Assembly (NCBI GenBank): GCA_015232315.1
Contig: JADFZZ010000001.1
Span: 208,835-272,834 of the forward strand
DNA: 64,000 nucleotides
Direction of reading: 5' to 3'
Source of the DNA: SAR324 cluster bacterium
Lineage (GTDB): Bacteria; SAR324; NAC60-12
Shown: positions 6,250 to 36,600 of the stretch, in pieces
Layout of the letters: each line of letters starts with the position of its first letter
Position numbering within the stretch: the stretch's first letter is position 1
Notes under the pieces: generated by a model
Database searches by the model: none
What the model saw: the letters and a program-made list of their open reading frames with translations, nothing else
What the model was told of the DNA's origin: nothing
Translations under genes and position numbers: made by a program

Positions 6250-6269
6250 AAATGAGGGATCCAATGGTG

Positions 6270-6464: not shown

Positions 6465-6704
6465 GATGTTTCACCTTAGATTTAAATCCCTGCAATAAAT
6501 TCTTGTATGAAAGAGCCTTAGCAACTGTAAACAATATTCTTTCCCCATTCAGGTAGCTTGACAATCGCAACAGCATATCGTTTTTATGCTTAACTTCTCT
6601 ATATATTTTTGTCAAATACTGTTTTGAGATCCTTTGTGGAAAAGCAATGTCTTTGAAAAAAACAAATTATTGAAATTAATAAAAATGGATTTTATGAGGG
6701 GATT

Positions 6705-8312: not shown

Positions 8313-8342
8313 TTGCAGACGAATAAAAAATGGAGTGTGACT

Positions 8343-15569: not shown

Positions 15570-15606
15570 TCCTTAAACCATTTAAAAATTTTTGAGGAGT
15601 AGGAAT

Positions 15607-16813: not shown

Positions 16814-17151
16814 CCTTCCTTATCCCACATGCCTGTTTTTCTACATAACATGATCAAGAAAAATGATTGTAATTTGAGGACAACTTACGACATTCCCCTC
16901 TTGGAATGATTTAAGATTATTAAAATAAAATATTTCATAAGATCATTAGCTAACAATATGATATTATTTAAAAATATAAAATCTACTCGACTGGCGTTTT
17001 CTGAAGAAATTTTTGTGGAATGGGAATTTAACGACCTCGACGTTGCACTAATTGGAGAATGTAATACGCTTTAATCAAAATATTATTTTACTTACAGATG
17101 GTTTTTGGGGATCATCTGAATTTAATAACAATCATTTGTGGGGAGGGCCCA

Positions 17152-18957
17152 ATGAAAAAAGTCATAAAAAAAATAATGATATCCTGTTTGGCATTAGGCG
17201 TAATGACCGCATGCCAACCAACCCAGGAAGAGAATCAATTGAATGTTAGCGCTGATAATCAGCAGGGACAGTCTCTCAGTTTTGATAAGTCAATCAGTGT
17301 AGCAGATTCCAGTGAGCGATTGTCTGTCAATCCAGACCTGATTTTTGTGGAAGGATTCAGCAATGGTTTTATGAATACCAACAGTTTTTATACATTAATG
17401 TCTCCCTTGAACAGTATGCTAGGACTCTTTGGAACCAGTGTTGAGGAAATTGTGAGTTCTGTTGCTGGAATCGATTTATCCAGTCAGCCAGGTTATGCGA
17501 AGTGGTATTTCTCAAAATATGCTGACGCATTCCTGGCCCAAGGAAAGGTCAATAAAGTGGGTTATCTCCATTGGGATACGGGTTATAGAATTTTAAGAGA
17601 TGGATTAATAAGCCAAATGGAGGATAACTATAATGGAGCTGGGGCGCCTGGATTACACACCCGGATTCAGCGCATGATGAATGGGACTTATACGGCAAAT
17701 GATGTGAAAAATTTTGATGCATATTGTCCTGGAGCAACTGAAACAGTTACAGAATTTGGCATATCAAATGTTAAAAAATGTAACAATGCCGCCTATAAAC
17801 TTTGTGCTAATGGTTGTATTTTCATGACACACTCCACAGGAGGTCTGGTTTTCGATCGGTTAGTTTATGAAGCTAATCAGGAGAAGCTATATCCGGGAAC
17901 CTACCCTAAACTGGCAGGTGTGTGGGATAAAACCACCATGGCCATTGAAATTTCTTCAGCCGGTGGAGGAACCGAGTTTTCGAACACAGTCATCAACCTA
18001 GTGGTTACTATGTGTAGTGGCGGCACCCAAACGGATCAATTGGTTAACTTTCTTGTAGGAGCCTTGTTCCCGGAATATTCTTGTGTGTCAGGAGGGTTAG
18101 AAACCAACAGCCAAAGGGCTGGTGCAGGTAGAGACTTGATGCCTGCGATTGCTCGTGATGCGACTAATGGAACAAAAGCCAGCTTTGGACGAACACCAAT
18201 TCTTCATATTGCGGGAAATGGAAACATGATGCCAGATGTGGGGATTTTGAGACTGGATTGGATTATTTCTAACAGTTATGGCGGTGCAGGCTATGGAGAT
18301 GGATTGGTTCCTTTAGCTTCTACCTGTGGTGCTAATACGGCAACACCTATCAAGAGTTGTCATCCTAAAGTGAGCCCTACTGGTACAATTGGAACCTATA
18401 GCGCTCCTGCTGGATTGTATACAAACCATCATCCCTTTATCATGACTGGAGAAGGCCATTTGAGCGAAATGAACGCAATTTTCGAAGCTTTGGGTGTGGA
18501 TGATAGTAACTGGGGAACTTATGTGAATCCAATCAACTATGTAGAAGTAGCTTTGAAATCCGGTAATTTGGAGCAAAAAATGGAACAGAGTTTCAGCAAT
18601 AGTGTAGTAGAAGTTCTGGTTCCGCCTCAAGGCTGGGGAAATCCAGAGGTAATGAGAACACAATGTTGGTATGAAACCGGATACGCTGGTGCGGATACAG
18701 CACTGCATACAAATTTGGATACATCCAGTAATTATGGCGGCATGTCCAATCAGGTTGATGACATCACCTGGAGAGGAACCAATACTCGCTATGATTTTTG
18801 GGATTGTGGTGGAAATAAAACGGATTGGTATTATTCCATTACCCAAATGAGCCTTGAAGGGGATGGCGACAGAATGTTCCACCTGTTGAGTAAAAAACTG
18901 GACGCTCGCATGCAACGGGGTGATACGGGACAACAAAACAATATGCAGGTTCAATAA
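17152..18957 (+). CDS. secreted lipoprotein, lipase/esterase-like alpha/beta hydrolase candidate (paralogue A)
   Basis: GGGAGGG RBS; lipobox LALGVMTAC; nucleophile-elbow-like FMTHSTGGLV; acid motif DGLVPLAS; Cys-rich C-terminal half; about 75% identical to 19414..21231. Confidence 0.55.
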   Translation: MKKVIKKIMISCLALGVMTACQPTQEENQLNVSADNQQGQSLSFDKSISVADSSERLSVNPDLIFVEGFSNGFMNTNSFYTLMSPLNSMLGLFGTSVEEIVSSVAGIDLSSQPGYAKWYFSKYADAFLAQGKVNKVGYLHWDTGYRILRDGLISQMEDNYNGAGAPGLHTRIQRMMNGTYTANDVKNFDAYCPGATETVTEFGISNVKKCNNAAYKLCANGCIFMTHSTGGLVFDRLVYEANQEKLYPGTYPKLAGVWDKTTMAIEISSAGGGTEFSNTVINLVVTMCSGGTQTDQLVNFLVGALFPEYSCVSGGLETNSQRAGAGRDLMPAIARDATNGTKASFGRTPILHIAGNGNMMPDVGILRLDWIISNSYGGAGYGDGLVPLASTCGANTATPIKSCHPKVSPTGTIGTYSAPAGLYTNHHPFIMTGEGHLSEMNAIFEALGVDDSNWGTYVNPINYVEVALKSGNLEQKMEQSFSNSVVEVLVPPQGWGNPEVMRTQCWYETGYAGADTALHTNLDTSSNYGGMSNQVDDITWRGTNTRYDFWDCGGNKTDWYYSITQMSLEGDGDRMFHLLSKKLDARMQRGDTGQQNNMQVQ

Positions 18958-19413: not shown

Positions 19414-21231
19414 ATGAGAGTAATAATCAAAAAAATCATTATAGCAGGTATTGCCTTGGGATTCATGACCGCATGCCAACCACCTCAGGAGCAGGAACAG
19501 CTCAATGTCGCAGATGTTCCTCAACAGGATCAGACAATCAACTTTGACAAAGCTCTGACTTCAGAAGATTCCTCACTTCGTTTGGCTGATTCAGTCAAAC
19601 CTGATATTATCTTTGTAGAAGGGTTTAGTAACGGGTTCATGAACACCGATAGTTTTTACACATTAATGTCGCCATTAAACAGTATGCTTGGACTGTTTGG
19701 AACCAGTGTTCAGGGATTATTAAGTTCTGTTTCTGGAATTGACACATCCAGTCAACCGGCTTATGCAAAATGGTACTTTTCAAAGTATGCCACTGCTTTT
19801 GAAGCTCAGGGCAAAGTCAGTAAAGTGGGTTATTTGCATTGGGATACCGGGCACCGAATTCTGAGAAGTGGTCCACAAACAAGTCAAATGGAAGATAACT
19901 ATGATGGTAAGGGTAATCCAGGACTGCATACCCGTATTAAACGTATGATGAATGGTACTTACACCGCAAATGATGTGAAAAATTTTGATGCGTATTGTCC
20001 GGGTGCGACAGAGACTGTTTCAGAGTTTGGATTAAGCAATGTCAAGAAATGTAATAATCCGGCTTATGCATTGTGTACCAATGGCTGTATGTTCATGACA
20101 CACTCTACTGGTGGACTTGTTTTTGACAGATTGATTTATGAAGCCAATCAGGAAAAACTAGTCGCTGGTTCCTACCCTAAATTGGCTGGTGTCTGGGATA
20201 AGACAACAATGGCCGTTGAAGTTTCTTCAGCAACTGGCGGAACAGAGTTTGCCAATACCGTCATTAATCTTGTTGTTGCCGCATGTAATGGTCCAAGTCA
20301 AACGGATAAACTCGTGATGTTTTTGGTACAGGCACTGTTCCCACAATATGAATGTAATCAGGCAGGACTGACTTATAATGAAATGAAGGCTGGTGCTGGT
20401 TCAGACTTAGTACCAACTGTAGCTCGAGCGGCAAATACAGGTTCTCAATCAAGTTTTGGACGAACCCCGATTCTGCATATTGCTGGAAATGGAAACATGA
20501 TGCCTAACGTCGGCATTCTGCGACTTGACTGGATTATCGCCAATAGTTACGGCGGTGCTGGCTATGGTGATGGTTTGGTGCCTTTAGCATCAACATGTGG
20601 AGCCAACTCAGCAACACCTATTAAAAGTTGTCATCCCAAAGTAAGTCCTACAGGATCTGTTGGTAGCTATAGTGCTCCCGCTGGATTGTTCACGAATCAT
20701 CATCCCTTTGTCATGACAGGGGAAGGTCACTTGAGTGAAATGAACGCGATTTTTGAAGCATTGGGCGTAGATGACAGCAACTGGGGAACCTATGTAAATC
20801 CAATCAACTATCTAGAAGTAGCTTTGAAATCAGGAAATCTGGAAGAGCGGATGGAGAAAAGCTTCAGCAATAGTGTCGTAGAGGTTTTGGTTCCTCCACA
20901 AGGTTGGGGTAATCCTGGACAGGTACGTGATCAGTGCGAACTGGATAGCGGATATGCCGGAGCGGATTCTGCATTAGCAACCAACTTGGACAGCGTGAGC
21001 GATTTTGGTGGAATGTCCAACCAAATGGATGGTTTTACATGGAACCGTGGTGCTGATGTCGGTAATTGTGGAGCGTTTGGATGGTGGGATAAGTATCGAT
21101 ATACTTATACCGTTACCAGTATGAGTTTGGAAGGTTCTGGTGACAGAATGTTCCATCTGTTGAGCAAAAAACTGGATACACGAATGCAACGTGGTGATAC
21201 AGGACAACAAAATAACATGATCGTCCAGTAA
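19414..21231 (+). CDS. secreted lipoprotein, lipase/esterase-like alpha/beta hydrolase candidate (paralogue B)
   Basis: GGAGGG RBS; lipobox IALGFMTAC; same FMTHSTGGLV and DGLVPLAS motifs. The upstream leader (tggggatcRtct) is also duplicated. Confidence 0.55.
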   Translation: MRVIIKKIIIAGIALGFMTACQPPQEQEQLNVADVPQQDQTINFDKALTSEDSSLRLADSVKPDIIFVEGFSNGFMNTDSFYTLMSPLNSMLGLFGTSVQGLLSSVSGIDTSSQPAYAKWYFSKYATAFEAQGKVSKVGYLHWDTGHRILRSGPQTSQMEDNYDGKGNPGLHTRIKRMMNGTYTANDVKNFDAYCPGATETVSEFGLSNVKKCNNPAYALCTNGCMFMTHSTGGLVFDRLIYEANQEKLVAGSYPKLAGVWDKTTMAVEVSSATGGTEFANTVINLVVAACNGPSQTDKLVMFLVQALFPQYECNQAGLTYNEMKAGAGSDLVPTVARAANTGSQSSFGRTPILHIAGNGNMMPNVGILRLDWIIANSYGGAGYGDGLVPLASTCGANSATPIKSCHPKVSPTGSVGSYSAPAGLFTNHHPFVMTGEGHLSEMNAIFEALGVDDSNWGTYVNPINYLEVALKSGNLEERMEKSFSNSVVEVLVPPQGWGNPGQVRDQCELDSGYAGADSALATNLDSVSDFGGMSNQMDGFTWNRGADVGNCGAFGWWDKYRYTYTVTSMSLEGSGDRMFHLLSKKLDTRMQRGDTGQQNNMIVQ

Positions 21232-21296: not shown

Positions 21297-21484
21297 CGCT
21301 TTTTGTTTATGCACTATTAGGGGTTGGTCACATTTTCGACAGTATGTCAGAAAACAGTCTTTGATTTATCACCTGGTTTGGGTTTTGTTCCGTAGGGGCA
21401 GACCTGTCTGCCCGGATCAGGGCGAACACACAGGTTCGCCCCTACAATTTGTGGCCGAAAATATGATCCACCCCTACGTATATT

Positions 21485-21565
21485 CCATAATCCTGACTTT
21501 ATGAGGATTCATTCTGATTCTGTCTTTCCTCCATGCCCATCCTGATTTTTTCTGGTCTATGTTTT
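21485..21565. repeat. family-3 repeat (aatcctgactttatgaggattcat...catcctgattttttctgg)
   Basis: Second copy at 23962..24048; partial copy at 22745..22775. Confidence 0.55.
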
Positions 21566-21570
21566 CTAAT

Positions 21571-21763
21571 CTGAAAAAAACTCTTGTTAAGGAACATTCG
21601 AAAAATAACTTGGGACCTTTCAAATTCCGGTTGACAGTTTGTCATCTCGACGAAGGAGAGATCCGGTTCGCCACGCTTGAAGATCCCTCGTCGCTCGTAC
21701 CTCGCTCTGTCGGGATGACACAGGCAAACTGTAAAGTACTTTTTGACTGATTTTGAAAGGTGC
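21571..21763. repeat. family-2 composite palindromic repeat (core acagtttgtcatctcgacgaaggagagatc...ctgtcgggatgacacaggcaaactgt)
   Basis: Inverted copy at 48471..48650. Its first 45 bp (ctgaaaaaaactct...aaaaataactt) recur at 22852..22897. Confidence 0.6.
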
Positions 21764-22238: not shown

Positions 22239-22642
22239 TATATCTGTGTGAAAGTAATACTCTATCCATTATTCACAGCAAACAAGGTAAAACCAATGCA
22301 TGAACAGATTTCTGGTTTCAAATCTCCAAAGCGTTACTCCCAGATTAACGCCGTCAATTTTCTTCAGCCTCTTCCCTGTGAATTTGAATTTTCCAGTGGA
22401 AATCCTGATTGAGAGCTTTGAAATCAGGAAGATTGAAGCGGCTGAATGACTTGCTTTACCGTGTTAATATCGACCAGTCTTCCTTCATTGTATTTGTGGA
22501 TAATGCTGGTAATCAGAAAATTTAGGTTGACCTGCAACAGTCAACAAAATGAAATTACCAGTGTCTGGGTAAAAACCAATTTTAGAAGTAAAAAATTTCA
22601 TAAATTTAGAGGATTAGCTAAATTTGAAGTAAGGCGGAAGTA

Positions 22643-22768
22643 CTCAAAACATGAATGCGCTATTGGCGAAACGGTGACCATGGCCGGCGCTGGCATGGAT
22701 GGAATTTGCAGAAAATTAATCATTCCCTATTTTGTCTTTAACCCCATAAGAGTCCATCACAATCCTGA
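22643..22768. repeat. 126-bp direct repeat, left copy, bracketing the BrnTA cassette
   Basis: Differs at two positions from 23855..23980. Confidence 0.65.
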
Positions 22769-22818
22769 TTTTATGAGCACCTTTCAGAGAAAATTGATTA
22801 AAAGATTGCTTAACATAT

Positions 22819-23145
22819 GGCTAATGATACATATAACCCAAGTTGTGACCGATCTGAAAAAAACTCTCGTTGAGGAACTTTCGAAAAATAACTTCCATAA
22901 CTTTTCAAAAAATCATTTCCTGCCGGGCATGCGTAGAGATGCGCGATTCGCAGGTCTCTACAGACCTGGGCAAGGGCTGTGTGTTAAAAAACTTTGGGCA
23001 GTTATTCTTTTGTCGTTCCTAAGGGCATTTCACCCAGATTTTGTGTCATCCCCAATGAATATGCGGAATCTTGACCACGATTTGAGCAGTGATTTCTCCC
23101 TTTGGTCAATATGGCACCGTAGGTCACAACTTGGGTTACATATAT
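22819..23145. mobile_element. MITE-like non-autonomous element with 17-20-bp terminal inverted repeats
   Basis: Left end acatataacccaagttgtgacc; right end ggtcacaacttgggttacatatat (reverse complement). No ORF inside. Carries the hairpin cgtagagatgcgcgattcgcaggtctctacag. Confidence 0.45.
22918..22972. repeat. GC-rich hairpin repeat (family 6)
   Basis: tgccgggcatgcgtagagatgcgcgattcgcaggtctctacagacctg; second copy at 45139..45190. Confidence 0.5.
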
Positions 23146-23175
23146 AAATATGGTTAATTATCAGGATGATGCAAA

Positions 23176-23457
23176 GTGGAATTTGAATGGGATGAGGATA
23201 ACAATAAAATCAACAAGGAAAAGCATGGCATCTCATTTTACGATGCTCAATATGCTTTTGCAGATCCCAATCGTATAGTTGCAAAAGATCTCAAACATAG
23301 CCAAATTGAGAAACGATTTTATTGTTTTGGAAAGGTAAAAGAAGAAATTGTAACAGTCAGATTCACTTACCGAGATCATAAAATAAGGATTATTGGCGCA
23401 GGATATTGGCGAAAAGGGAGAAGTACTTATGAACAGCAAAATAAAATACGTGGATGA
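23176..23457 (+). CDS. brnT: BrnT-family (DUF497) ribonuclease toxin
   Basis: GTG start; MEFEWDEDNNKINKEKHGISFYDAQYAF...RIIGA matches the BrnT pattern. Confidence 0.75.
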   Translation: MEFEWDEDNNKINKEKHGISFYDAQYAFADPNRIVAKDLKHSQIEKRFYCFGKVKEEIVTVRFTYRDHKIRIIGAGYWRKGRSTYEQQNKIRG

Positions 23458-23674
23458 ACCAATGGAGTTTGAGGTTGTTGAGGATTTTCTGCCACCCCCT
23501 GTCGATCTTGTGTTTAAGGAAGAGACGATAAAAGTGACAATCAACCTCAACAAATCCAGTGTAAAATTCTTCAAAAAAAAAGCACAGGAAGTTGGGATTC
23601 CTTATCAAAAAATGATTCGTAAAATAGTAGATTTATATGCGAATCGATACAGTGATACGGGAAGCTCTCATTAA
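23429..23674 (+). CDS. brnA: BrnA-family antitoxin
   Basis: 81 aa, overlaps brnT by 29 nt; C-terminal KKAQEVGIPYQKMIRKIVDLYA ribbon-helix-helix-like region. Confidence 0.65.
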   Translation: MNSKIKYVDEPMEFEVVEDFLPPPVDLVFKEETIKVTINLNKSSVKFFKKKAQEVGIPYQKMIRKIVDLYANRYSDTGSSH

Positions 23675-23854
23675 AACTTTAGGAGTGATAATGGCAATGT
23701 CGGAGTCAGTTTGATGTGCGGATGTTTAAGGCTATCAACGAAAGCCGATACACTTTGTAAATTCAATGAATTAGAGAACCCCTGCAAGGTCAGACGGGAC
23801 GTACGATTTTGACTAAAATTTTACGACCATCTGTATCGGGTTAACCTGGTAGCC

Positions 23855-23980
23855 CTCAAAACATGAATGCGCTATTGGCGAAACGGTGACCATGGCCGGC
23901 GCTGGAATGGATGGAATTTGCAGAAAATTAATCATTCCCTATTTTGTCTTTAACCCCATAAGTGTCCATCACAATCCTGA
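23855..23980. repeat. 126-bp direct repeat, right copy, bracketing the BrnTA cassette
   Basis: See 22643..22768; continues into a family-3 repeat at 23962..24048. Confidence 0.65.
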
Positions 23981-24101
23981 CTTTATGAGGATTCATCAGA
24001 ATCCTGTCTTTCCTTCATGCCCATCCTGATTTTTTCTGGCCTATTTTTTCAAAGTCGATAGTTCTATAAAAAACATCCACAATCATCTGAATGGAGTCGC
24101 T

Positions 24102-24566
24102 ATGGGATTGAGTGTTGAAGATAAAAAAGAAGTGGAGGACTTTGTCAAAAACGTCATGCAGTTGAACCAACTGGATGTGCAGGACCTTCAACAGCAATGG
24201 CGAAAATTCAAGGAAGCTCCTGAAGCCAGTTTGGCGGCACTTGAAGTTCAGACATCAGAACTTGGCCGGGAAATTCGGGAATTCAAGCAGGATGTATCAA
24301 AACGTTTTGAGCAGGTGGATAAACGTTTTGAGCAGGTGGATAAACGTTTTGAACAGGTGGATAGACGTTTTGAGCAGGTAGATAAACGTTTTGAGCAGGT
24401 GGATAAACGTTTTGAGCAGGTGCGTCAGCAGTTGGATGATGTCAACAAAACCATGATGCGGCTCCATGAAAGCATGAATGCCCAGGTCTGGAAATTTCTT
24501 GGCGGATTAGGGGTCATTCTCATTTTGTTACGACTGTCCGGCGCAATTTTTCCTAATCTGCCATAA
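24102..24566 (+). CDS. C-terminally membrane-anchored coiled-coil protein with six KRFEQVD heptad repeats (DUF1640-like)
   Basis: GGAG RBS; heptad array KRFEQVDKRFEQVD...; C-terminal TM FLGGLGVILILLRLSGAIF. Confidence 0.6.
   Translation: MGLSVEDKKEVEDFVKNVMQLNQLDVQDLQQQWRKFKEAPEASLAALEVQTSELGREIREFKQDVSKRFEQVDKRFEQVDKRFEQVDRRFEQVDKRFEQVDKRFEQVRQQLDDVNKTMMRLHESMNAQVWKFLGGLGVILILLRLSGAIFPNLP
24300..24425 (+). repeat. 6 x 21-bp near-perfect in-frame tandem repeat (aaacgttttgagcaggtggat)
   Basis: Units at 24300, 24321, 24342, 24363, 24384 and 24405, with 0-3 mismatches each. Confidence 0.85.
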
Positions 24567-24652
24567 GATGACTCTGCATTGAAACGCACCTGTGCTAGTG
24601 AAATATTGTCATTCCATTCATTGTAATCACACAAACAGCGAAGATATCAGAC

Positions 24653-27421
24653 ATGGATTCTTTAACAAAATTCAAACGAAAAGGTTTCAGCGCTCAAGCG
24701 GCCACAACAGAAGACAACATTGGTTTTCAGATCAACTTTGATCAGACAGGAGCCTACCTGTCTGTCATCAACTCGCAGGGAAAAGAGGTCGATCCGGATT
24801 ATCGAAGTTACAGCGGAATCACCCGGGACATACTTCGTCTGATAGCGGATATTCAACTGAGGCAGGAATTTCAGATTGATTGGGATTCTGACAATTCACG
24901 AGTCTATCTGGCCTCTCATGAATCCCTGATTATGAAACTGCGTCTTCATCCCAAAGTTCTCACCGATTCCGGACAATTGATCAGTTTTTCAAGCCATGCC
25001 GCCAAATTGCTTATGGCTGTTGAGGAGAATGCCAAAAAAAAGCTCAGTGGAAAATTGCGACTGCTTCTTGGCGAGGGGGAATCTCCTGAGGTACGCTTTT
25101 TGACAGATTCTCTGGTTCTTTCGGGCACCACTGTTTATGAAATTCCATCCGCGGGAGAACGGTTTGCTGATCTTGCGATGTTTGAATCTGCGTTTCAGGC
25201 CAATGAACTGGAAAATTTTCTGTCCCTGTTTTATTCCCACTTTGCAGACATTCCGATTCGTTATCAGGATTACCAGTGTGTAGAAGGTCCCACCCGTCTG
25301 GCTCAGGCCGCTCTCGTGTTTGAGAAAATAGACCATGAACAAAATCTCTATCTGCGAGTCAGTACGACCGTGGAAGGTCTGGATGCCGATTTCTTTGAGG
25401 AGTATGAAATCAATCGGTTGGTGACACTCAATGAAATGGAACGTGTGATTCAAATATGTCCCCTGGTCGAGGAAAGCTCAGTGGATGCCTTGCGCGAAAT
25501 CAACAGTCTGTTGAACAAGCGAAAGCGCCAACTGAAGACAGACAATGCGGATTTTTACCTGGAAGAGAATCTGTTCATCATTCAGAAAACACTGGCTCAG
25601 GAATTTATCTATCTGGATTTGCCCAATCTCATTGGTCGCTACTCACTGCTCGGTTCTGAAAAACTGAAAGATTACAAGGTACGTGCGGTCACGCCTCGTT
25701 TGAGTCTGGCATTGGCACATGGCATTGATTTTCTGGAAGGCGAGGCCACCCTCGAGATTGAAGGGCAGAGCTTTTCCTTGTTTGAGGCCATCAGCCTTTA
25801 TCGAAAAAAATCCTATATTCCGTTGACCGACGGCACCCATGCCCTGATCAACCAGGGGTATATCGAAAAGCTGGAACGTCTGTTTAAAAAACAGCAGGAT
25901 CAGGTCAAAGTTTCATTCTTTGATCTTCCCGCGATTGAAGAATTGATTGATGAAAAAGCGGCTCAGGCAACCTTTCCACAATCCCGTGAAATTTTCAGGG
26001 GATTCAATGAATTGAAGGATCAAAAAATCAAACTGCCAACCGTCAAGGCTACCTTGCGCCCCTATCAGCAACAAGGGTACAAGTGGCTTGAATATTTGCG
26101 AAAAAACAATCTGGGAGGATGTCTTGCGGATGATATGGGTCTGGGAAAAACAATCCAGACTCTGACCATGCTGGCTGGCGTGTATCCCAAAGAAAAAATG
26201 CCCTCCTTGCTGGTAATGCCTAAAAGTCTGCTGTTCAACTGGCAAAAGGAAATCGAAAAATTTACGCCGAATATCACGTGTTATGTGTTTTATGGCAATG
26301 ATCGGGATATGGCCAAAGCCAAAGAGCACAATCTGATTCTCACCACCTATGCCATGCTACGCAATCAAATTGAACAGTTTTGCGAGGAACAGTTTTATTA
26401 TGTAGTTCTCGATGAATCACAGAATATCAAAAACATTCAGTCCCAGATTTCCAAGGCTGTTCTGCTGTTGAAGGCTCAACACCGTCTGGCCCTGAGCGGT
26501 ACTCCTGTTGAAAATAATTTGGGTGAACTGTATTCCCTGTTTCGGTTTCTCAATCCTGCCATGTTCAATTCCGCTGATGAATTCAACCGGTATTACATTG
26601 CTCCGATTCAGCAAAACAATGATAAACAGGCGATTCATGAGCTTAAAACAAAAATTTATCCCTTTATTTTAAGACGTCTCAAAAAAGATGTGCTCAAAGA
26701 ACTTCCGGACAAGATTGAGCAGGTGTTGTATGTGGATATGTCTGACGAACAAAAACGGCTGTATCACCAACGGCGTGTGTTTTATCAGGATTCGCTGAAA
26801 CAACAGATCGCGGTGAACGGAATCAACAAATCACAATTTTTTATCTTCCAGGCACTGACCGAATTGCGTCAGATCGCATCCATTCCTGAAGCCCAAAGTG
26901 ATGGAGCGATTGTCTCCCCCAAACGGGAATTGTTGCTGGAACAAATCATGGAATCCACCGCCAACCGACACAAGGTGCTCGTTTTCGGCAATTTCCTTTC
27001 AATCCTCGAGCATGTCGGCGAAGATCTTCAGCAGGCCGGAATCCAGTATCTGGTCATGACTGGAGCAACCCAGGACAGAGGTGCTCTGGTGGAACGGTTT
27101 CAGAATGATCCCGACTGCCAGGTTTTTCTCATGACTCTCAAAACCGGCGGTTTGGGGTTGAATCTCACGAAAGCGGATACCATCTTCATTTTTGATCCCT
27201 GGTGGAATCTGGCCGCTGAAAATCAGGCCATAGACCGCAGTCATCGCATTGGACAGGATAAAACAGTGTTCAGCTACAAACTCATCACCCGTGGTTCCAT
27301 CGAAGAAAAAATCCTTCAACTTCAGGAAAAGAAACGGGAACTGTTTGAAAACATCATTTCCAGTGACAGTGCGTCTATTAAATCATTGAATGAAGAAGAT
27401 ATTAATTTCATTCTCAGTTAA
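24653..27421 (+). CDS. SNF2-family (Swi2/Snf2) ATPase with an N-terminal domain of about 450 aa of unassigned function
   Basis: LRPYQQQGYKWL, DDMGLGKT (Walker A), VVLDESQNIKN (DExx), LALSGTPVENNLGELYSLFRFL, and helicase-C motifs towards the C-terminus. Confidence 0.85.
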   Translation: MDSLTKFKRKGFSAQAATTEDNIGFQINFDQTGAYLSVINSQGKEVDPDYRSYSGITRDILRLIADIQLRQEFQIDWDSDNSRVYLASHESLIMKLRLHPKVLTDSGQLISFSSHAAKLLMAVEENAKKKLSGKLRLLLGEGESPEVRFLTDSLVLSGTTVYEIPSAGERFADLAMFESAFQANELENFLSLFYSHFADIPIRYQDYQCVEGPTRLAQAALVFEKIDHEQNLYLRVSTTVEGLDADFFEEYEINRLVTLNEMERVIQICPLVEESSVDALREINSLLNKRKRQLKTDNADFYLEENLFIIQKTLAQEFIYLDLPNLIGRYSLLGSEKLKDYKVRAVTPRLSLALAHGIDFLEGEATLEIEGQSFSLFEAISLYRKKSYIPLTDGTHALINQGYIEKLERLFKKQQDQVKVSFFDLPAIEELIDEKAAQATFPQSREIFRGFNELKDQKIKLPTVKATLRPYQQQGYKWLEYLRKNNLGGCLADDMGLGKTIQTLTMLAGVYPKEKMPSLLVMPKSLLFNWQKEIEKFTPNITCYVFYGNDRDMAKAKEHNLILTTYAMLRNQIEQFCEEQFYYVVLDESQNIKNIQSQISKAVLLLKAQHRLALSGTPVENNLGELYSLFRFLNPAMFNSADEFNRYYIAPIQQNNDKQAIHELKTKIYPFILRRLKKDVLKELPDKIEQVLYVDMSDEQKRLYHQRRVFYQDSLKQQIAVNGINKSQFFIFQALTELRQIASIPEAQSDGAIVSPKRELLLEQIMESTANRHKVLVFGNFLSILEHVGEDLQQAGIQYLVMTGATQDRGALVERFQNDPDCQVFLMTLKTGGLGLNLTKADTIFIFDPWWNLAAENQAIDRSHRIGQDKTVFSYKLITRGSIEEKILQLQEKKRELFENIISSDSASIKSLNEEDINFILS

Positions 27422-27429
27422 GGAATCTT

Positions 27430-29355
27430 ATGGCGGATCTGAATAAAATATTTAAAAAACTCAGTGATATGGGCATCATTGTGGATAAAACTACAGAGGG
27501 TGTCATCATAGACAAGGTCAGTGAGTTACAGGGCATGGCGAAACCAACACAGCAAAAACCGGAAAACCAGCTCTATGCAATGATTTCCTCAAGCTACACC
27601 AAGGCCATTCTCTCTATTCTTTATGAGAAATGGATCAGGAAGCTTATTGACCGTTTTCCCGAATTGTTCAGAAAACATGGTTGTCCTGTCCCCTTGAAGT
27701 ATCCTAACAAGGACCATCTCACCAGGATGCTGCTGGCGGTGTATTCAGAAAAAAAAATGTTTGACGCATTATGGCAGAACCTGCCGGAGGCGGTACGACA
27801 AATTTTTATCTGGACGATCTGGTATAAAAGATTCTGTCATCAGGACATGCTGGCACAAACACTCAAAATCCAGATTTGGCAAACTGCGGATCGCTACTCT
27901 AATGAACACCATATGTATCTGAAACCAGAGTATCTGTTTTTTTCTTATGAAGTTCAGTACAGTTACCTCAGCAACAGAAATACTGAAAAACCACCCTACA
28001 TTTACAACCTGTATTTCAATCCGGAACTGGGAGAATATCTGAAACAATTCTTGCCCACGCCCGACGGTTATGATTTGCATCCAGAGGCCAAGATTCCGGA
28101 ATGCAGGATTCACGAAAACCGGGGTCTGATCCTTCAGGAGTTGCCTGTGTTATGGGCCTATATCCAGCAGGGCCAACTCAAACTTTCCAATAATGGCAAA
28201 ATTCTGAAAGCGTCTCTCAAGGAATTTCAGAAATTGATGCAGGTTCCTGAATTTTTTGAGGAACAGAATCTGAATTCCCTGCGAACGGAAATGCTCACCA
28301 ATCTGCTGGCCTGCATCAAGATCAAGCCGCAATCCGATCCGTTAAAACTCCTTCAACAGGTTTTTGAAAATTATCAGGTAAAAAACACCTACTCTCATCT
28401 GAATGGTTTGTTGTTTCATCTCAAGGGGCGTTCGACTTATCTTTCTCATATTTATTACGAAGAATTCAATCTTGCTCCAATTCTGGTGCAAAGACTGCTT
28501 TCCGCCTTGCCACAGGGGCAATGGGTATCTTTGGAAAATCTGAAGGATTACGCGAATTTAAGGTCGGTTCCCATCCTGAACGTATTGGATCCTTATCATG
28601 CGACACGCTATCTGCATTATATCTCTGGTGAACAGAGCACGTATGAACACAAAAAGTATATCATGCGTGATAATCTTGAATATACCATCAAACAGCCTTT
28701 GATTGCCGGGTCCATGTTCCTGTACGCCTGTCTGGGATTGGTGGACATCGCTTATGATTTCCCCAAAAATGACGTGGTGCAGGAGCGTCAACTGGGTTAT
28801 CTCAGTGTGTTTGATGGATTGCGCTATGTGCGGTTGACGGATCTGGGTGCCTTTCTTACAGGCAAAACTTCAAGTTACAGTGCTCCGGTCATGGCGGTGG
28901 CTCAGACAAAGGTGCTTCTTGATGAAAATCGCCTGATCTGCGGGCTGGATGGCAATGATCCCGTCAAACGCCTGATTCTTGAAAAAATGGCAAAACCCAT
29001 TGCCTTGAATCATTTCAAGGTTGATCATGAATCCTTTCTGAAAGGCTGTGTGACCAAAAAAGATGTTCAGGAAAAGATTGATCTGTTCCACACTCATATC
29101 GAAGGAAAACCACCTGAAATCTGGAAAAACTTTTTTAAACAGACACTCGCCCGCATCAATCCGCTAACCCATAAAAAAGATTTGCTGGTCTTTGAACTGG
29201 AACAGGATCGGGATCTGATTCATTTGCTGGCGACAGACGCAATTCTTAAAAAACACATTTTGAAAGTTGAGAATTTCCACATCGCCATTGAACGGAGTGA
29301 TTATAATAAGGTTAAAAAAAGATTGGAATCGCTGGGTTATCTGTTAACCAATTGA
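27430..29355 (+). CDS. hypothetical protein (641 aa), translationally adjacent partner of the SNF2 ATPase
   Basis: AAGGAA RBS; 8-bp gap after the SNF2 stop; no Zn-finger or nuclease motif recognised. Confidence 0.5.
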   Translation: MADLNKIFKKLSDMGIIVDKTTEGVIIDKVSELQGMAKPTQQKPENQLYAMISSSYTKAILSILYEKWIRKLIDRFPELFRKHGCPVPLKYPNKDHLTRMLLAVYSEKKMFDALWQNLPEAVRQIFIWTIWYKRFCHQDMLAQTLKIQIWQTADRYSNEHHMYLKPEYLFFSYEVQYSYLSNRNTEKPPYIYNLYFNPELGEYLKQFLPTPDGYDLHPEAKIPECRIHENRGLILQELPVLWAYIQQGQLKLSNNGKILKASLKEFQKLMQVPEFFEEQNLNSLRTEMLTNLLACIKIKPQSDPLKLLQQVFENYQVKNTYSHLNGLLFHLKGRSTYLSHIYYEEFNLAPILVQRLLSALPQGQWVSLENLKDYANLRSVPILNVLDPYHATRYLHYISGEQSTYEHKKYIMRDNLEYTIKQPLIAGSMFLYACLGLVDIAYDFPKNDVVQERQLGYLSVFDGLRYVRLTDLGAFLTGKTSSYSAPVMAVAQTKVLLDENRLICGLDGNDPVKRLILEKMAKPIALNHFKVDHESFLKGCVTKKDVQEKIDLFHTHIEGKPPEIWKNFFKQTLARINPLTHKKDLLVFELEQDRDLIHLLATDAILKKHILKVENFHIAIERSDYNKVKKRLESLGYLLTN

Positions 29356-29410: not shown

Positions 29411-29662
29411 CTATGGTGAAGGTTCCTGTTTTTCGTGTTCCTCGGAGGCTACCGTGTTCTGCAATTTGCGAAGCAGGCGGTAGATGCTCCGGTAACCGGC
29501 AAAGACGCCAAAGAGAACAAACAGTAAAAAGAGCCAGGGCGTGGTTCCAAAAACTCTATCCAGATATTGCCCAACCACACATCCCACCACTACCGACAAT
29601 CCCAGTTCCAGTCCCATCGAACTGAACATGAGCCATTTTGACTCCAGTTTAGGCCATTGCAT
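29411..29662 (-). CDS. AtpZ/AtpI-family small membrane protein (PF09527-like)
   Basis: Two TMs and GLELGLSVVVGCVVGQYLDRVFGTTPWLFLLFVLFGVFAGYRSIYRLL pattern. Confidence 0.5.
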   Translation of the reverse strand: MQWPKLESKWLMFSSMGLELGLSVVVGCVVGQYLDRVFGTTPWLFLLFVLFGVFAGYRSIYRLLRKLQNTVASEEHEKQEPSP

Positions 29663-33044: not shown

Positions 33045-33266
33045 ATGGAGGCTTATCGGATAGAAACTCAAGTGGATCAAAACAGTTCACTGGTTCTGAC
33101 CAATTTACCATTTCATGAGGGAGAAACGGTTGAAGTTCTCATTATCAAAGCTCCTCTACCTATGAAAAATAATTCAAACAAATCTTATGTACTACGTGGT
33201 ACTCCAGTGAAATACATCGAGCCAACTGAACCTGTTGCTAAAGAGGACTGGGAGGCGTTGAAGTGA
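33045..33266 (+). CDS. type II antitoxin (VapB-like) of the PIN toxin
   Basis: 73 aa; stop overlaps the downstream PIN gene start by 4 nt. Confidence 0.5.
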   Translation: MEAYRIETQVDQNSSLVLTNLPFHEGETVEVLIIKAPLPMKNNSNKSYVLRGTPVKYIEPTEPVAKEDWEALK

Positions 33267-33658
33267 TTGTTTTGGATACTCATATCTGGATTTGGTGGGT
33301 CCACGGTGATCGTAATCTTCCTGATGTCTACAGGAATTATCTTCAACAGAATGAATCTCAGGGACTGGGGATCAGTATCATTTCCTGTTGGGAAATTGCC
33401 AAATTAGTTGAATATCAACGTCTGGAATTGCCCTGTGATGTGGCGGAATGGACAGAAAAAGCTGTCAGTTATCCGTACATCTGTTTACTGGATTTAACAC
33501 CAGAAATTATTATTGATTCGACAAGACTGCCTCAACCATTTCATCGCGATCCAGCAGATCAATTGATTGTTGCAACGGCCAGAATCCATCATTGCTCACT
33601 AATGACGGTAGACTCAAAAATTACAAACTATCCACATGTATCAAAGGTTCCACAATAG
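33263..33658 (+). CDS. vapC: PIN-domain toxin (VapC family)
   Basis: GTG start; VLDTHIWIWW...D...E...D acidic residues with PIN spacing. Confidence 0.65.
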   Translation: MIVLDTHIWIWWVHGDRNLPDVYRNYLQQNESQGLGISIISCWEIAKLVEYQRLELPCDVAEWTEKAVSYPYICLLDLTPEIIIDSTRLPQPFHRDPADQLIVATARIHHCSLMTVDSKITNYPHVSKVPQ

Positions 33659-33681: not shown

Positions 33682-36600
33682 TTGCCTAAACTCTATTATT
33701 CGAATGACCTGACCATCATGGCTGGTATGCTGGCTGAAAATCTCGCGGATGAAGATCCGTTTGACACCGGCATCATTGTTGTTCCCAATTTCAGCCTGCA
33801 ACAGTGGCTTTCTCTACAAATCGCTTCGTTGAACGGTATTGCCGCCAATCTGAGCTATGTGCCGCTTGAAAAGGCAATTCTCTCCGCGATTGTTCCCTCC
33901 AGTCAGAAAAAAAACATCACCCTCCTGCATCCCGGGTCCATTCAACTGCTGCTGGTCAGTCTTCTTCATGAAAAACTCAATGACAGTGACCCTGTCTGGA
34001 CTCCGCTGAAGGACTACATTTTCAGTCATGAACAGTTGCAGTCTCATGCGTTGGAAGTTCGTATTTTTCAGCTTGCCGCCAAACTGTCCAACCTGTTCCA
34101 GCAATATGAATATCTCCGCTGGGACATGCTGGCTGAATGGAAAGCGGGCCGCACCTGTTTCAATGAACCGGCATTGACCACGGAACGTTGGCAAAAAGCG
34201 TTGTGGTTGGGATTGTTTGGCGAGAATGGTCTGGTGGAAAAGTTCAATGAACAGGTTCTCAACAACAGAGATGGTGAGCTATCCAGGACATATTGGACCT
34301 TACCCCAGATTGTACGCTATCTGCCGCTGGCCTCCCCTGTTCAATCGAAAAAGAGCCTGCATATTTTTGGTTTGTCCTACATTTCCCGTTTTTATCATGA
34401 CATTCTGTCAACAAAACTTGAAGATTACTATGAGGTGTCGGTTTACACCCTCAACCCCTGTATGGAGTTTTGGGAAGATCTTGAATCAGAATGGGAATCC
34501 CGGATTGCCGCCAAAAAAATTCTCCGGCAGAGTCCGGAATATTATGACAAGGTGCTCACCAGATATCATACGCCGATTTCCGATGAAGACAGTCAGGCTG
34601 GAGAATTGTTTCAGCACGAGGAAGATAATCAGTTTCTCAAGGCCTGGGGTCGGCCCGGACGGGAAAACATCCGTCTGCTCAATGAATGGGGCCAGTGGGA
34701 ATTTTATCCTGTGTTCCATAATCCACTGCATCTGCGGCACACGATTCTGAGTCAGATTCAATTTGATATTCTCACCAGAGAACCCCGCAAACCTGCCCCT
34801 TTGCAATTGCCTCAAGATGACAGCCTGGTGGTGATGGCCTGTCCCAATGTTCGTCGTGAAGTGGAAATTGTGACCAATGAAATCTGGAAACTGCTTCAAA
34901 GCCATGAGGATCTCCGGATGAATCAGATTGCGGTCATTATTCCTGATATGGAACGCTACCAGACCGATGTCGAAATCGTCTTCCAAGCGATCCATCGTCT
35001 CCCCTACAACCTGATTGATGGTGTCAATCTGCGTGCCGGCAGGTTGCTGGATGGCGCGTTAAAACTGTTTGGACTCTGTTTGACCGACTATACCAGGAAA
35101 GATATGTTTGAACTGCTTGGAAATCCCAACTTTCTCAAGCATCCTGACGATCCGGAGATCGATCTCGAACTGTGGCTCGACTGGGCTGAAAAACTGGGGA
35201 TTTTTTATGGAATCAGTGAAACCGATAATCGGGAACGTGGATTTCAACACCTCAAGGATGATTTGTATAACTGGGAACAGGGATTGAACCGCTTGAATCT
35301 GGGCATGTTTCTCAGTGTTTCTCCTGACGATCCAAAACTGTTTGAATTGCGGAACCGGTCCTGTGTGCCCTTGACCATTGAAGCACAACATGACACGCAG
35401 GCTCAATGGTTCATGACCCTCATCAGGTCGCTGATCGCTGACACCCGGTCCATGCGAAACTGGCAAATGACAGGAGATCTGTGGGGGAAATACCTGCACA
35501 CGCTGTTCACCACCTATTTCGCACCGCTCAATGACACGGAACAGGATGAATATTCACGTATCGCCAACAGCCTGTTGGAAATGCGTGAATTTGAAGTTCT
35601 GGGAAAGTCTGCTGTTGGCTTTTCTGTGGTGTATGAGTTTTTCAAACAGTCTCAGGATGAAGTTTCCATGCACCGTGGACGTTATCTGGCAGAAGGGGTG
35701 ACAATTTCCTCGTTTTTGCCCATGCGGCCCATTCCGTTTGATGTGGTCTTTATTCTGGGACTGGGAGAAGGCCAGTTTCCCGCGCTGGATCAAAAGGACA
35801 ATCTGGACTTGCGGCAGGCCCGGCGGCTTCTGCACAATCCTGTCAGGGGCAAAGCCTACCGAGACCGGGAAATCGGCGATGTGTCCAATGCGGAGAAAGA
35901 CAAGTACATGTTTCTGGAAATTATGGTTTCAACCAGAAAAAAGTTGTATCTCAGCTACATTTCACGCAATGACAAAACCGATGATCCTCTCAATCCGTCT
36001 TCCGTGGTTCAGTCTTTGATTGGCATTCTCGATACGGAATATCTGGCAGGACGATTTCAGCAACAGGTGCATCCGCTTAAAAATTATGATTCCCGCTATT
36101 TTCCAGAATTGAAGCCACAACCATCTGAAACAGCTCTCCACAGTTTTGACCATTATGCCCGACTTCAGGCTTATGCCCGGCATTGGCGCGAGCAACTTCA
36201 GATCAGGACTGAAAACAGCCCGTCATCAGCCCCTGTACTCAAGGATCAATGGGAAAAATGGTACTGGCAATTGACCGGAGGCAAAGAGCGGTTGAGGCCA
36301 ACGAACGAAAAAGAACTGCCGGAAAAAATCGTGATTTCGTTGTCACAAATCCGACAATTTCTGGAATGTCCACTGCAATCCGCGGCTCGACGGCAGTTGG
36401 GCCTGTTTGATGAAGAGGATCTGTCATCGGTCGAAGCAACCCATGAACCCTTTGGGGTGGACCACCTTCAGGAATGGCAGCTTTTGAACCGTACACTGGA
36501 ATATGGCATGAGTCCCGCTGGTCTTCATTCGTCTCTCGACGCATGGTATCAACAGCAAGTGCGTTATCTGGAATTACAGGGGCAGTTTCCTTCAGGTTTG

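Follow-up and report, generated by a model that had tools for sequence, protein, structure and literature searches.

The SNF2 gene and its neighbourhood

The window, a stretch of 64,000 nucleotides from a metagenome-assembled genome (MAG) of a SAR324 cluster bacterium, holds a gene for a SNF2-family ATPase, followed on the same strand by a gene for a protein of an unnamed family (Table 1). The ORF list places both genes and the 8-bp gap between them at exactly the coordinates given in the initial annotation. Judging from the sequence of this short spacer, the two genes are probably translationally coupled. No clear terminator-like site turned up between the genes in a consensus scan, and co-transcription of the pair is plausible.

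The initial annotation had also set the pair between BrnTA and a VapBC/RecC region, in a repeat-rich stretch. BrnT and a CopG/BrnA-like ORF do lie upstream, and VapC and RecC downstream, but four ordinary genes intervene before VapC/RecC; besides the AtpI-like ORF, these are a PpiD-like PPIase, a DsbD_N-like gene and an APS kinase. The description as repeat-rich holds for the upstream region at 21.4-24.5 kb only, and not elsewhere.

Table 1. Position and basis of the genes, domains and motifs discussed (window coordinates).
Feature	Position	Strand	Basis or remark
BrnT	23176-23457		upstream of pair
CopG/BrnA-like ORF	23393-23674		upstream of pair
SNF2-family ATPase gene, 922 aa	24653..27421	+	ORF call; Pfam SNF2-rel_dom and Helicase_C; best PDB sequence match 1Z63
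N-domain of SNF2 protein, aa 1-455, family-specific stack of small alpha/beta modules	24653..26017	+	
Most conserved N-domain part, aa ~300-455, SNF2_assoc (PF08455)-like	25550..26017	+	invariant columns, homologue matches
SNF2 ATPase core, motifs I-VI, aa 460-920	26030..27412	+	Pfam, PDB sequence match, motif reading
Intergenic spacer, 8 nt, 'ggaatctt'	27422..27429	+	AAGGA-like ribosome-binding site before partner ATG
Partner gene, 641 aa, unnamed family, TFIIH p52/Tfb2-like predicted fold	27430..29355	+	ORF call
Helical and winged-helix array, aa ~44-475, like N-terminal half of p52	27559..28854	+	predicted
Most conserved partner motif YLSVFDGLRYVRLTDLGAF, aa 457-475	28798..28854	+	predicted beta-strand and helix, last winged helix/clutch-like junction
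XPB-N-terminal-domain/p52-'clutch'-like domain, aa ~495-610	28912..29259	+	predicted
C-terminal beta-beta-alpha element, aa 611-641, ...KVKKRLESLGYLL	29260..29352	+	model elements, conserved residues
AtpI-like ORF	29411-29662	-	first of four genes between pair and VapC/RecC
PIN/VapC gene	33263-33658		downstream of pair
RecC	33682-37332		downstream of pair

The SNF2 motor

Pfam places SNF2-rel_dom (PF00176) at aa 471-743 of the 922-aa protein (E 6.8e-70) and Helicase_C (PF00271) at aa 758-867 (E 5.3e-18), and the best PDB sequence match, Sulfolobus SSO1653 (1Z63), covers aa 461-920 (E 3.6e-98). Both agree with the core that had been drawn at residues of about 460-920. Motifs I (DDMGLGKT), II (DESQ), III (SGTP) and VI (QAIDRSHRIGQ) can be read intact from the sequence. 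Chromatin remodellers follow SSO1653 among the PDB matches, with Mot1, Snf2, ISWI and INO80 at E 5e-75 or weaker. By sequence, the motor is an SSO1653-type Snf2 ATPase, closer to SSO1653 than to the eukaryotic remodeller subfamilies. Snf2 enzymes move along double-stranded DNA without helicase activity, which is known for SSO1653 too (PMC1616948).

The best PADLOC matches of the motor are DpdE (E 2e-134) and ZorD (E 9e-104), together with DrmD; the ZorD and DpdE models extend N-terminally to aa ~357. Scored with the NCBIfam models, the motor reaches 239 bits for ZorD (cut-off 1,500), 110 for DrmD (cut-off 950) and 56 for DpdE (cut-off 500).

The N-terminal 460 aa have no Pfam match even at E<=10, and the invariant columns of the N-domain are concentrated at aa 315-426. 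The initial annotation had proposed the bacterial SNF2-associated domain for this region, and this receives indirect support: PF08455 is matched by 2 of 17 motor homologues, although the window N-domain has no match to it at E<=10. The better of the two, in P0029 (E 1.7e-9, with 37.6 bits where the cut-off is 27), lies in the equivalent region and takes in profile positions 172-355 of 373 only.

An unnamed partner family

The 641-aa partner has no match in Pfam (E<=10), NCBIfam or PADLOC (5,027 models). Pfam searches with 41 members of its family returned nothing meaningful and no Tfb2/p52 family, and PDB sequence searches with three partner profiles (A1, A3 and A6) gave chance-level matches only, none of them to a p52 chain. 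As first noted, the partner is not a SWIM protein (no CxC...CxH motif in the 641 aa and no Pfam SWIM match). The absence of a recognisable catalytic motif also stands: N-domain and partner are without Pfam matches, and the partner alignment has no conserved catalytic constellation. No effector domain (nuclease, methylase, NADase or other) was found in either protein. We considered the conserved D603, K612 and E614 as a possible nuclease site, and dropped this reading because their order (D-x8-K-x-E) is not that of PD-(D/E)xK and because the residues lie within the XPB-NTD-like fold.

A word-indexed protein search recovered 13 relatives of the partner, and the same 13 were found with a 41-sequence profile. 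An exhaustive HMM search gave 1,782 cluster representatives, and the idea that the family is very rare was rejected. Within the most conserved motif, YLSVFDGLRYVRLTDLGAF, the residues Y457, L458, F461, D462, L464, Y466, V467, R468, L469, T470 and G473 are invariant in alignment A1, and the motif is also kept in a Rhodococcus PF13625 protein.

Likeness to p52 and the XPB N-terminal domain

In a fold search, the predicted model of the partner matched p52 chains almost end to end, as well as the XPB N-terminal domain (NTD). The predicted fold follows the p52 architecture, in which winged helices lead to a clutch domain folded like the XPB NTD and then to a C-terminal module. The likeness is drawn from AlphaFold models, and global TM-scores are low (0.2-0.3), so that the domains match while their arrangement differs. 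Winged-helix arrays are common, which is a caveat on the p52 likeness. The likeness to p52 and the XPB NTD was absent from the initial annotation.

The small C-terminal element is modelled as strands E610-613 and E617-621 and helix H622-634, with K612, E614, K627, R631, L632 and G636 conserved in alignment A1. Foldseek matches it weakly to p8 (2jnj; rank 50, probability 0.66). Tentatively, this element may correspond to the dimerisation module at the C-terminus of p52.

The partner also has distant homologues among proteins with PF13625, the XPB/Ssl2 N-terminal domain. It aligns with one of these relatives, P0013, at an hhalign probability of 99.8, and with the Rhodococcus protein by tblastn over partner aa 353-639 (E 1e-7). 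Against a PF13625 gathering score of 34.2, the Rhodococcus protein scores 46.8 bits, P0013 26.1 and a Cupriavidus protein 25.4. Each of these matches falls at the corresponding place in the C-terminal part; the window partner itself gives none. In the same register, the partner profile aligns with residues 89-197 of human XPB, but weakly (hhalign E 0.0043, probability 8%).

Relatives of p52 have been reported absent from bacteria. That the partner family is a true bacterial homologue of TFIIH p52/Tfb2, sharing ancestry as well as a similar fold, is a serious possibility to which we give somewhat less than even odds.

Conservation of the pair

Of the 43 genome loci that hold a partner relative, 39 have, immediately upstream and in the same orientation, a SNF2 gene whose product carries the same N-domain. 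In three of the four remaining loci, the upstream DNA is too short for a verdict. At L047, the partner has no adjacent SNF2 gene despite 8 kb of upstream DNA, and it also lacks one at L003 and L004. The genome loci bearing the pair span at least 10 phyla, and in the 39 with the motor gene the SNF2 ATPase core is 62-73% identical, against 55% in Fusobacterium. The pair also occurs in Chondrinema, in Fusobacterium, at L059 and L060, and on the metagenome contigs L001, L005, L007, L009 and L010. In Chondrinema litorale, the two proteins carry the accessions WP_284686867 and WP_284686866. Over 36 related loci, the gap between the two genes has a median of 6 bp, and in 20 of these the genes are at most 10 bp apart or overlap. 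Such tight spacing is as expected for stoichiometric subunits. The SNF2 gene and its partner are a conserved two-gene module.

Genomic context

Most genes flanking the pair belong to metabolism, signalling or replication, and the flanks are shared only among members of a lineage; in Fusobacterium, for example, the pair adjoins dnaE. In Pfam censuses that took in 101 ORFs on the upstream side and 102 on the downstream side, metabolism and signalling dominated, with no family exceeding 5 of about 100. In a PADLOC census of the 140 nearest flanking ORFs (~37 loci), no family occurred in more than two ORFs. In the window locus itself, we found none of the genes that accompany the SNF2 protein in Zorya, DISARM, Dpd or BREX. 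The partner and seven neighbouring ORFs gave no defence-specific PADLOC match; they had weak coiled-coil or P-loop matches to ZorA, JetC, PbeC, VakA and GajB. Among the grounds that would refute its defence reading, the initial annotation had named the lack of a defence-island association; what we find are mostly housekeeping flanks specific to each lineage and no recurrent defence family.

Relatives of the partner were found neither in 50,697 phage records nor in IMG/VR, and we rejected a mobile-element or viral origin on these grounds. The replicons behind the plasmid matches proved to be megaplasmids, chromids or, in one case, a chromosome with the wrong label. In Chondrinema, the pair lies on a megaplasmid and is flanked by IS elements.

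A model for the pair and its alternatives

We propose that the two proteins form a heterodimeric, ATP-driven translocase on double-stranded DNA, in which the p52-like partner tethers and regulates the motor, and that it serves genome maintenance or transcription (probability about 0.5). Gene linkage, conservation, domain content, predicted folds and the lack of catalytic or effector domains are what the analysis shows, whereas a physical complex, regulation of the ATPase and the cellular target are inferred. The steps proposed for docking and anchoring follow the analogy with p52 (+p8) and XPB. The p52 clutch shares the XPB NTD fold and pairs with the XPB NTD through beta-sheets, and together with the dimer of the p52 C-terminal domain and p8 it cradles RecA2 (PMC6422496). 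Stimulation of the XPB ATPase by p52 is described in work cited in PMC3353954. In the proposed complex, the 922-aa motor would track duplex DNA and generate torsion without unwinding it, while the 641-aa partner, made on the plan of TFIIH p52/Tfb2, would serve as adaptor and regulator without catalysis of its own. By analogy, the clutch-like and C-terminal parts of the partner may dock on the motor by beta-sheet pairing, most likely on the N-domain, and docking would position the motor and stimulate its ATPase. The winged-helix array could then hold the complex to DNA or to a partner machine, such that translocation works on a fixed target. The role would be one of chromosomal housekeeping, either in repair or in clearing and remodelling the complexes that proteins form with DNA or those of transcription.

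The initial annotation had offered a chromatin- or RNA polymerase-remodelling pair and an uncharacterised defence module as the two options. Remodelling is favoured by the conserved pairing, the SSO1653-type motor and the p52-like partner, while the defence option is not supported. Another explanation would be that two unrelated genes share an operon in this MAG by chance. Against this, the order and orientation of the genes recur across phyla, and their close spacing persists while the flanks vary between lineages. A meaningless adjacency is hardly credible, since the pair is conserved to an extent that in effect refutes it. A locus-specific transcription regulator is closer to our proposal and differs from it only in its target: the winged-helix partner would recognise specific operators and bring in the motor, which would turn particular genes on or off by dislodging RNA polymerase, a repressor or a nucleoid protein. 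Among bacterial Snf2 proteins, the characterised RapA does act on RNA polymerase. The closest NCBIfam model of the motor is NF053675, a 'pilus expression-regulating Snf2 family helicase' (E 4.8e-117), and the regulator would resemble the helicases so named. However, this match covers aa 415-921 only and, at 392 bits, falls far under the 1,100-bit cut-off. Neither flank census revealed a conserved neighbouring target operon, and the winged helices sit within a p52-like scaffold rather than the architecture of a dimeric repressor. We consider such a regulator unlikely.

The pair could also be an uncharacterised anti-phage or anti-plasmid module, with the SNF2 protein scanning DNA and the partner sensing foreign DNA or a phage protein, such that replication or transcription complexes on the invader are stripped or stalled. 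SNF2 ATPases recur as components of defence systems, and in PADLOC the motor matches best to the SNF2 cores of proteins from such systems. The pair is patchy across phyla, with a core conserved to a degree compatible with horizontal spread. In the window it lies near BrnTA, a repeat-rich stretch and VapC, in Chondrinema it stands between IS elements, and a few related loci adjoin PD-T4-4, PtuB, AriA or AAA_15/AAA_21 ATPases. Yet the PADLOC matches extend over the generic SNF2 core and about 100 aa only, the system companions are absent, the partner matches none of the PADLOC models and neither protein has an effector domain. The flanks are syntenic within lineages, and the two-ORF maximum among flanking defence families is a count without background correction. 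Because these flanks are mostly housekeeping genes with no recurrent defence family, and because the partner has no phage or viral-contig matches, the defence reading is not supported, and we judge it rather improbable.

Comparison with known systems

The closest parallel to the proposed translocase is the p52/Tfb2 (GTF2H4) subunit of TFIIH with XPB/Ssl2 (and p8/Tfb5). Both have a non-catalytic subunit that runs from winged helices through a clutch to a small alpha/beta C-terminal part. In TFIIH, p52 is described as recruiting and stimulating an SF2 translocase on double-stranded DNA (PMC6422496; for stimulation, work cited in PMC3353954); here, the pairing with an SF2 gene is known from the genes. 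The motor differs, being an SSO1653-type SNF2 protein and not XPB, and genes for p8, p44, p34, p62 and XPD are absent from the window and the related loci. The partner is also ~180 aa longer than p52, with a different domain arrangement, and its sequence matches neither Tfb2 in Pfam nor the p52 chains of the PDB.

The PF13625 (Helicase_C_3) proteins, annotated as 'helicase-associated domain-containing proteins', are true, if distant, homologues of the C-terminal half of the partner. The Rhodococcus protein shares with it both a YDGL..(I/V)RLT.LG motif and the clutch-like region. Unlike the window family, these proteins pass or approach the PF13625 threshold, and the ones examined do not adjoin a SNF2 gene. 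Actinobacterial PF13625 proteins probably accompany XPB-type helicases.

Among bacterial SNF2 systems, the usual neighbour is probably a SWIM gene. The SSO1653-like/SNF2_assoc (PF08455) proteins with a SWIM neighbour resemble our pair in the motor subfamily, the two-gene layout and the non-catalytic partner, and in an N-terminal region that is PF08455-related in some homologues of the window motor. Here, though, the partner belongs to a different, unnamed family without the SWIM motif. ZorD (Zorya), DpdE (Dpd), DrmD (DISARM) and BrxHI (BREX) share the homologous core and about 100 aa before it. The window motor has no Mrr nuclease domain, unlike ZorD, and the pair lacks the ZorABC, Dpd, Drm and Brx companions and a defence-island setting. 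RapA/HepA, the RNA polymerase-recycling protein of E. coli, is likewise an ATPase of the Snf2 family in bacteria and acts by remodelling a complex of protein and DNA, but no RapA entry is among the best 60 of 82 PDB sequence matches of the motor. RapA acts as a single polypeptide with N-terminal domains of its own, and we know of no p52-like partner for it.

Significance

To our knowledge, bacterial Snf2 ATPases beyond RapA are poorly understood, and their partners outside defence systems are essentially uncharacterised. A literature search found no relevant report on bacterial SNF2/SWIM pairs, PF08455, Snf2 proteins and pili, or bacterial p52-like or TFIIH-like proteins. The present analysis defines a widespread, unnamed two-gene module (~1,800 partner clusters, with the pair in at least 10 phyla) and offers a testable model of the partner as a p52-like regulatory and anchoring subunit.

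If the homology is true, a winged-helix scaffold with a clutch that docks on and activates an SF2 translocase on double-stranded DNA would predate eukaryotes. The pair would then represent a prokaryotic antecedent of the XPB-p52 module of TFIIH, and a simple two-protein system in which to study it. Clutch-type regulation would be transferable between SF2 motor families, and bacteria would have plugged one p52-type principle into different motors, namely SNF2 and possibly, with other PF13625 proteins, XPB-type helicases.

The partner family merits a profile-HMM and a name, which would annotate thousands of 'hypothetical proteins'. Cultured hosts of the pair include Fusobacterium vincentii and Chondrinema litorale.

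The SNF2 ATPase and its partner form a conserved gene pair

Its sequence places the 922-aa protein firmly among the Snf2-family ATPases, with Pfam matches to SNF2-rel_dom (residues 471-743, E 6.8e-70) and Helicase_C (residues 758-867) and all ATPase motifs intact. The closest solved structure is the core of Sulfolobus SSO1653 (1Z63; E 3.6e-98, residues 461-920), with eukaryotic remodellers ranking below; by best match, the motor is thus classed as SSO1653-like. Snf2 enzymes move along double-stranded DNA but do not unwind it (PMC1616948). The first ~455 residues (the N-domain) have no Pfam match even at E<=10. Their conserved portion, residues 300-455, corresponds to the C-terminal half of PF08455 (SNF2_assoc) in two homologues, and the ZorD and DpdE models also reach into it. 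No sequence similarity was detectable between the N-domain and the partner.

Both ORFs, and the 8 nt between them, were found as described in the initial annotation. An AAGGA-like ribosome-binding site precedes the partner's ATG. At the junction, consensus scanning picked up nothing clearly resembling a terminator, and ahead of the SNF2 gene it gave no more than a weak promoter-like site. A convergent AtpI-like ORF marks the 3' end of the putative operon. The partner is identical to the hypothetical protein HQM11_00960 from a SAR324 cluster bacterium MAG.

Positions of the gene pair, neighbouring features and tandem partner paralogues (window coordinates unless a locus is named)
Feature	Position	Strand	Details
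ORFs upstream of the pair	15592-16770; 17098-18957; 19414-21231; 22446-23147	+	392, 619, 605 and 233 aa
Dispersed direct repeat	21471-21569 / 23955-24053		99 nt, 83% identity
Dispersed direct repeat	21569-21611 / 22852-22894		43 nt, 93% identity
Dispersed direct repeat	22636-22788 / 23848-24000		153 nt, 93% identity
BrnT toxin overlapping CopG/BrnA-like antitoxin ORF	23176-23674		BrnT: PF04365, E 4.7e-23
Coiled-coil ORF	24102-24566	+	154 aa
Tandem repeat in coiled-coil ORF	24300-24422		5.9 copies of a 21-nt unit
Weak promoter-like site	24579-24607		consensus scan
SNF2 ATPase gene	24653-27421	+	ORF, 922 aa
Partner gene	27430-29355	+	ORF, 641 aa
AtpI-like 'ATPase_gene1' membrane protein ORF	29411-29662	-	83 aa, convergent; PF09527, E 5e-17
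Probable vapB (73 aa) with PIN (VapC) gene	33045-33658		immediately upstream of recC
PIN (VapC) gene	33263-33658
RecC gene	33682-37332
Partner paralogues, L033 (Bacteroidetes MAG)	6188-7987 and 7992-9782		locus coordinates
Partner paralogues, L045 (Sericytochromatia MAG)	5663-7480 and ~8001-9257		locus coordinates

A word-indexed search turned up no more than 13 partner relatives; when 1.84 billion cluster representatives were searched exhaustively with a profile, 1,782 passed E<=1e-3 and 807 passed E<=1e-30. The family falls into two size classes, of ~600 aa (to which the window's partner belongs) and ~860 aa. The long form (~850-900 aa) carries an additional N-terminal ~250 aa with HEAT-like repeats (weak PF13646 match) and two CxxC pairs forming a zinc-ribbon-like element, and was seen in the homologues P0004-P0007 and P0012 and in 16/36 loci (e.g. 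L012, 7104-9794).

Scanning one genome per species gave 45 loci, 43 of them (L011-L053) with a substantial partner match; as the scan relied on two short peptide patterns, it covers the family's closer members. Among the hosts are Desulfobacterales, Moduliflexota, Bacteroidota (Saprospiraceae, Lewinellaceae), Methylococcales, Verrucomicrobiota, KSB1, Margulisbacteria, Sericytochromatia, Brocadiaceae, Spirochaetales and Nitrospirota. In tblastn searches with the window proteins, the gene immediately upstream of the partner in 39 of the 43 loci, in the same orientation, encodes an SNF2 protein with this N-domain. Of the remaining four, three have too little upstream DNA for a verdict, leaving L047 as the one true exception. 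Compared with the window proteins, the ATPase core is 62-73% identical, the N-domain 33-50% and the partner 26-41%. The median spacing is 6 bp, and in 20/36 loci the genes overlap or lie at most 10 bp apart. It is extremely improbable that the two genes are neighbours by chance.

The pair also occurs on metagenome contigs, on a Chondrinema litorale megaplasmid (annotated as 'DEAD/DEAH box helicase' and 'hypothetical protein') and in Fusobacterium vincentii, directly upstream of dnaE. The F. vincentii record in PLSDB, 'plasmid pSB055A' (L058, NZ_CP084075.1), is 2.1 Mb long with dnaE and dam adjoining the pair, and is almost certainly a mislabelled chromosome. Two further SNF2 proteins, found through the N-domain, are likewise followed by a partner. 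In L033 and L045, a single SNF2 gene precedes two tandem partner paralogues, which suggests that partners could form hetero-oligomers or serve as interchangeable specificity subunits.

Some loci depart from this arrangement. Only in L021 ('Bacterium UASB14') was an intervening gene seen, a 189-aa DUF5615 ORF (6279-6848) within a gap of 887 bp. L003/L004 (P0007) and L047 have a partner homologue with no SNF2 gene nearby, which could reflect loss, relocation or a partner that functions independently; L003 shares an upstream radical-SAM gene with L007, a locus that does have the SNF2 gene. L009 (3983-6735), L060 (6001-8705) and L045 (2901-5670) have an SNF2 gene broken into two or three ORFs, which may be due to frameshifts from assembly errors or to real pseudogenisation.

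The partner is predicted to resemble TFIIH p52

The AlphaFold2 model of the partner, built from a 41-sequence alignment, is confident (pLDDT 86.2, pTM 0.78). A Foldseek search of the PDB with this model gave 14 matches at E<=1e-3 (7e-7 to 7e-4; probability 0.99-1.0), including 8ebu_D, 6nmi_D, 7egc_4, 7o4i_2 and 7zs9_2, with ~560 columns aligned to chains of 390-460 modelled residues. We take all 14 to be one and the same TFIIH chain. XPB chains come next in the list, with ~170-190 columns aligned. Global TM-scores are low (0.2-0.3); in the model, the domains correspond and their mutual arrangement differs.

In p52, the TFIIH subunit that regulates XPB, N-terminal winged-helix domains are followed by the clutch (306-399) and a C-terminal p8-binding module (PMC6422496). 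The clutch has the fold of the XPB N-terminal domain and pairs with it via beta-sheets; jointly, these parts of p52 bring in XPB and form a cradle for its RecA2 lobe (PMC6422496). The partner's most conserved motif, YLSVFDGLRYVRLTxLG (residues 457-475), lies just before the clutch-like domain, at the predicted junction with the last winged helix. The same junction in p52 is a hinge that moves when TFIIH binds DNA (PMC6422496), and by analogy we infer that the motif may be its functional parallel.

The whole partner has no Pfam match even at E<=10, PF13625 (Helicase_C_3, the XPB/Ssl2 N-terminal domain) included, and no NCBIfam or PADLOC match. Three distant relatives do match PF13625 at the equivalent C-terminal position: P0013 (E 9.3e-6; a homologue of the family by hhalign, at probability 99.8, and by hmmsearch, at E 1.4e-27), a Rhodococcus opacus 'helicase-associated domain-containing protein' (46.8 bits against a cut-off of 34.2; tblastn E 1e-7 to partner residues 353-639) and a Cupriavidus ORF (E 1.5e-5). 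The partner is classed as a distant relative of the bacterial PF13625 'helicase-associated domain' proteins. Aligned by hhalign with the human XPB N-terminal sequence (100% identical to XPB 75-201), the partner's C-terminal profile gave E 0.0043 over 102 columns, at a probability of only 8%. The register, residues 506-609 against XPB 89-197, is that expected from the Pfam matches and places the consensus RYKVxYxSFLK opposite EYKLT(119)AYSLY; this link to XPB is supportive but not decisive. The partner is not classed in the p52 family itself, as it fails the Tfb2 sequence-level tests and lacks a TFIIH context. Nor is it a SWIM zinc-finger protein, as had been noted from the start.

A proposed two-subunit translocase and a less likely defence module

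Given the linkage, conservation, domain content and predicted folds observed here, the best-supported reading of the pair is a two-subunit dsDNA translocase, of the kind of an SF2 translocase with a regulatory subunit. By analogy, the partner would bind the SNF2 motor and regulate its ATPase, giving it what p52 (with p8) gives XPB: recruitment, positioning and stimulation. Its winged helices would anchor to DNA or protein. The role we consider likelier is genome maintenance, or the clearing and remodelling of transcription or nucleoid complexes, since neither protein has an effector domain and the flanks are of housekeeping type. A locus-specific transcription switch, which overlaps mechanistically with this reading, is unlikely. 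In the literature searched, whose coverage is incomplete, no bacterial SNF2 ATPase with a p52-like partner is described, and an earlier description is possible.

A defence module, one of the two roles proposed in the initial annotation, is slightly less likely still. We surveyed the three nearest ORFs on each side of ~40 loci by naive longest-ORF calling, counting the 25 commonest families. Among 101 upstream ORFs, no Pfam family occurred more than five times; the commonest were peptidase M24, enoyl-CoA hydratase, methyltransferases and glycogen enzymes, owing to gene order shared within Desulfobacterium-like and other Desulfobacterales lineages. For the 102 downstream ORFs, the highest counts were four each, for histidine-kinase, GAF and PAS domains. 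Isolated loci do show PD-T4-4, PtuB, AriA or kinase-type (PD-T4-6) matches, but no defence family was found in more than two of the 140 nearest ORFs scanned with PADLOC (raw counts). None of the genes that accompany SNF2 proteins in Zorya, Dpd, DISARM and BREX is present beside the pair, and neither 50,697 phage records nor IMG/VR contained a relative of the partner. This pattern corresponds to the lack of defence-island association that the initial annotation named as refuting a defence role. On a Cupriavidus oxalaticus megaplasmid (L061, 4966-7407), an 813-aa distant relative with a weak PF13625 match and no SNF2 gene has a Tn3-family transposase on one side and a JetA (Wadjet)-like gene on the other; other contexts, defence-related ones among them, may exist for the wider 'helicase-associated domain' superfamily.

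Neighbourhood of the pair in the window

The pair does lie between BrnTA and VapC/RecC, but four ordinary genes (AtpI-like on the minus strand, PpiD-like PPIase, DsbD_N-like and APS kinase) separate it from the latter. The repeats noted around the pair are likewise real but confined to 21.4-24.5 kb, upstream of it. That repeat-rich part adjoins a block of unknown genes, the four upstream ORFs listed in the table, none of which has a Pfam match; for those of 605 and 233 aa, NCBIfam and PADLOC gave no match either. Directly upstream of the SNF2 gene, the coiled-coil ORF has generic coiled-coil matches only, and its 21-nt unit, AAACGTTTTGAGCAGGTGGAT, encodes a perfect heptad repeat (KRFEQVD). The dispersed direct repeats occupy the intergenic and short-ORF stretch upstream of the pair, with one copy just before the coiled-coil ORF; they may be regulatory regions that were duplicated, or miniature mobile elements.
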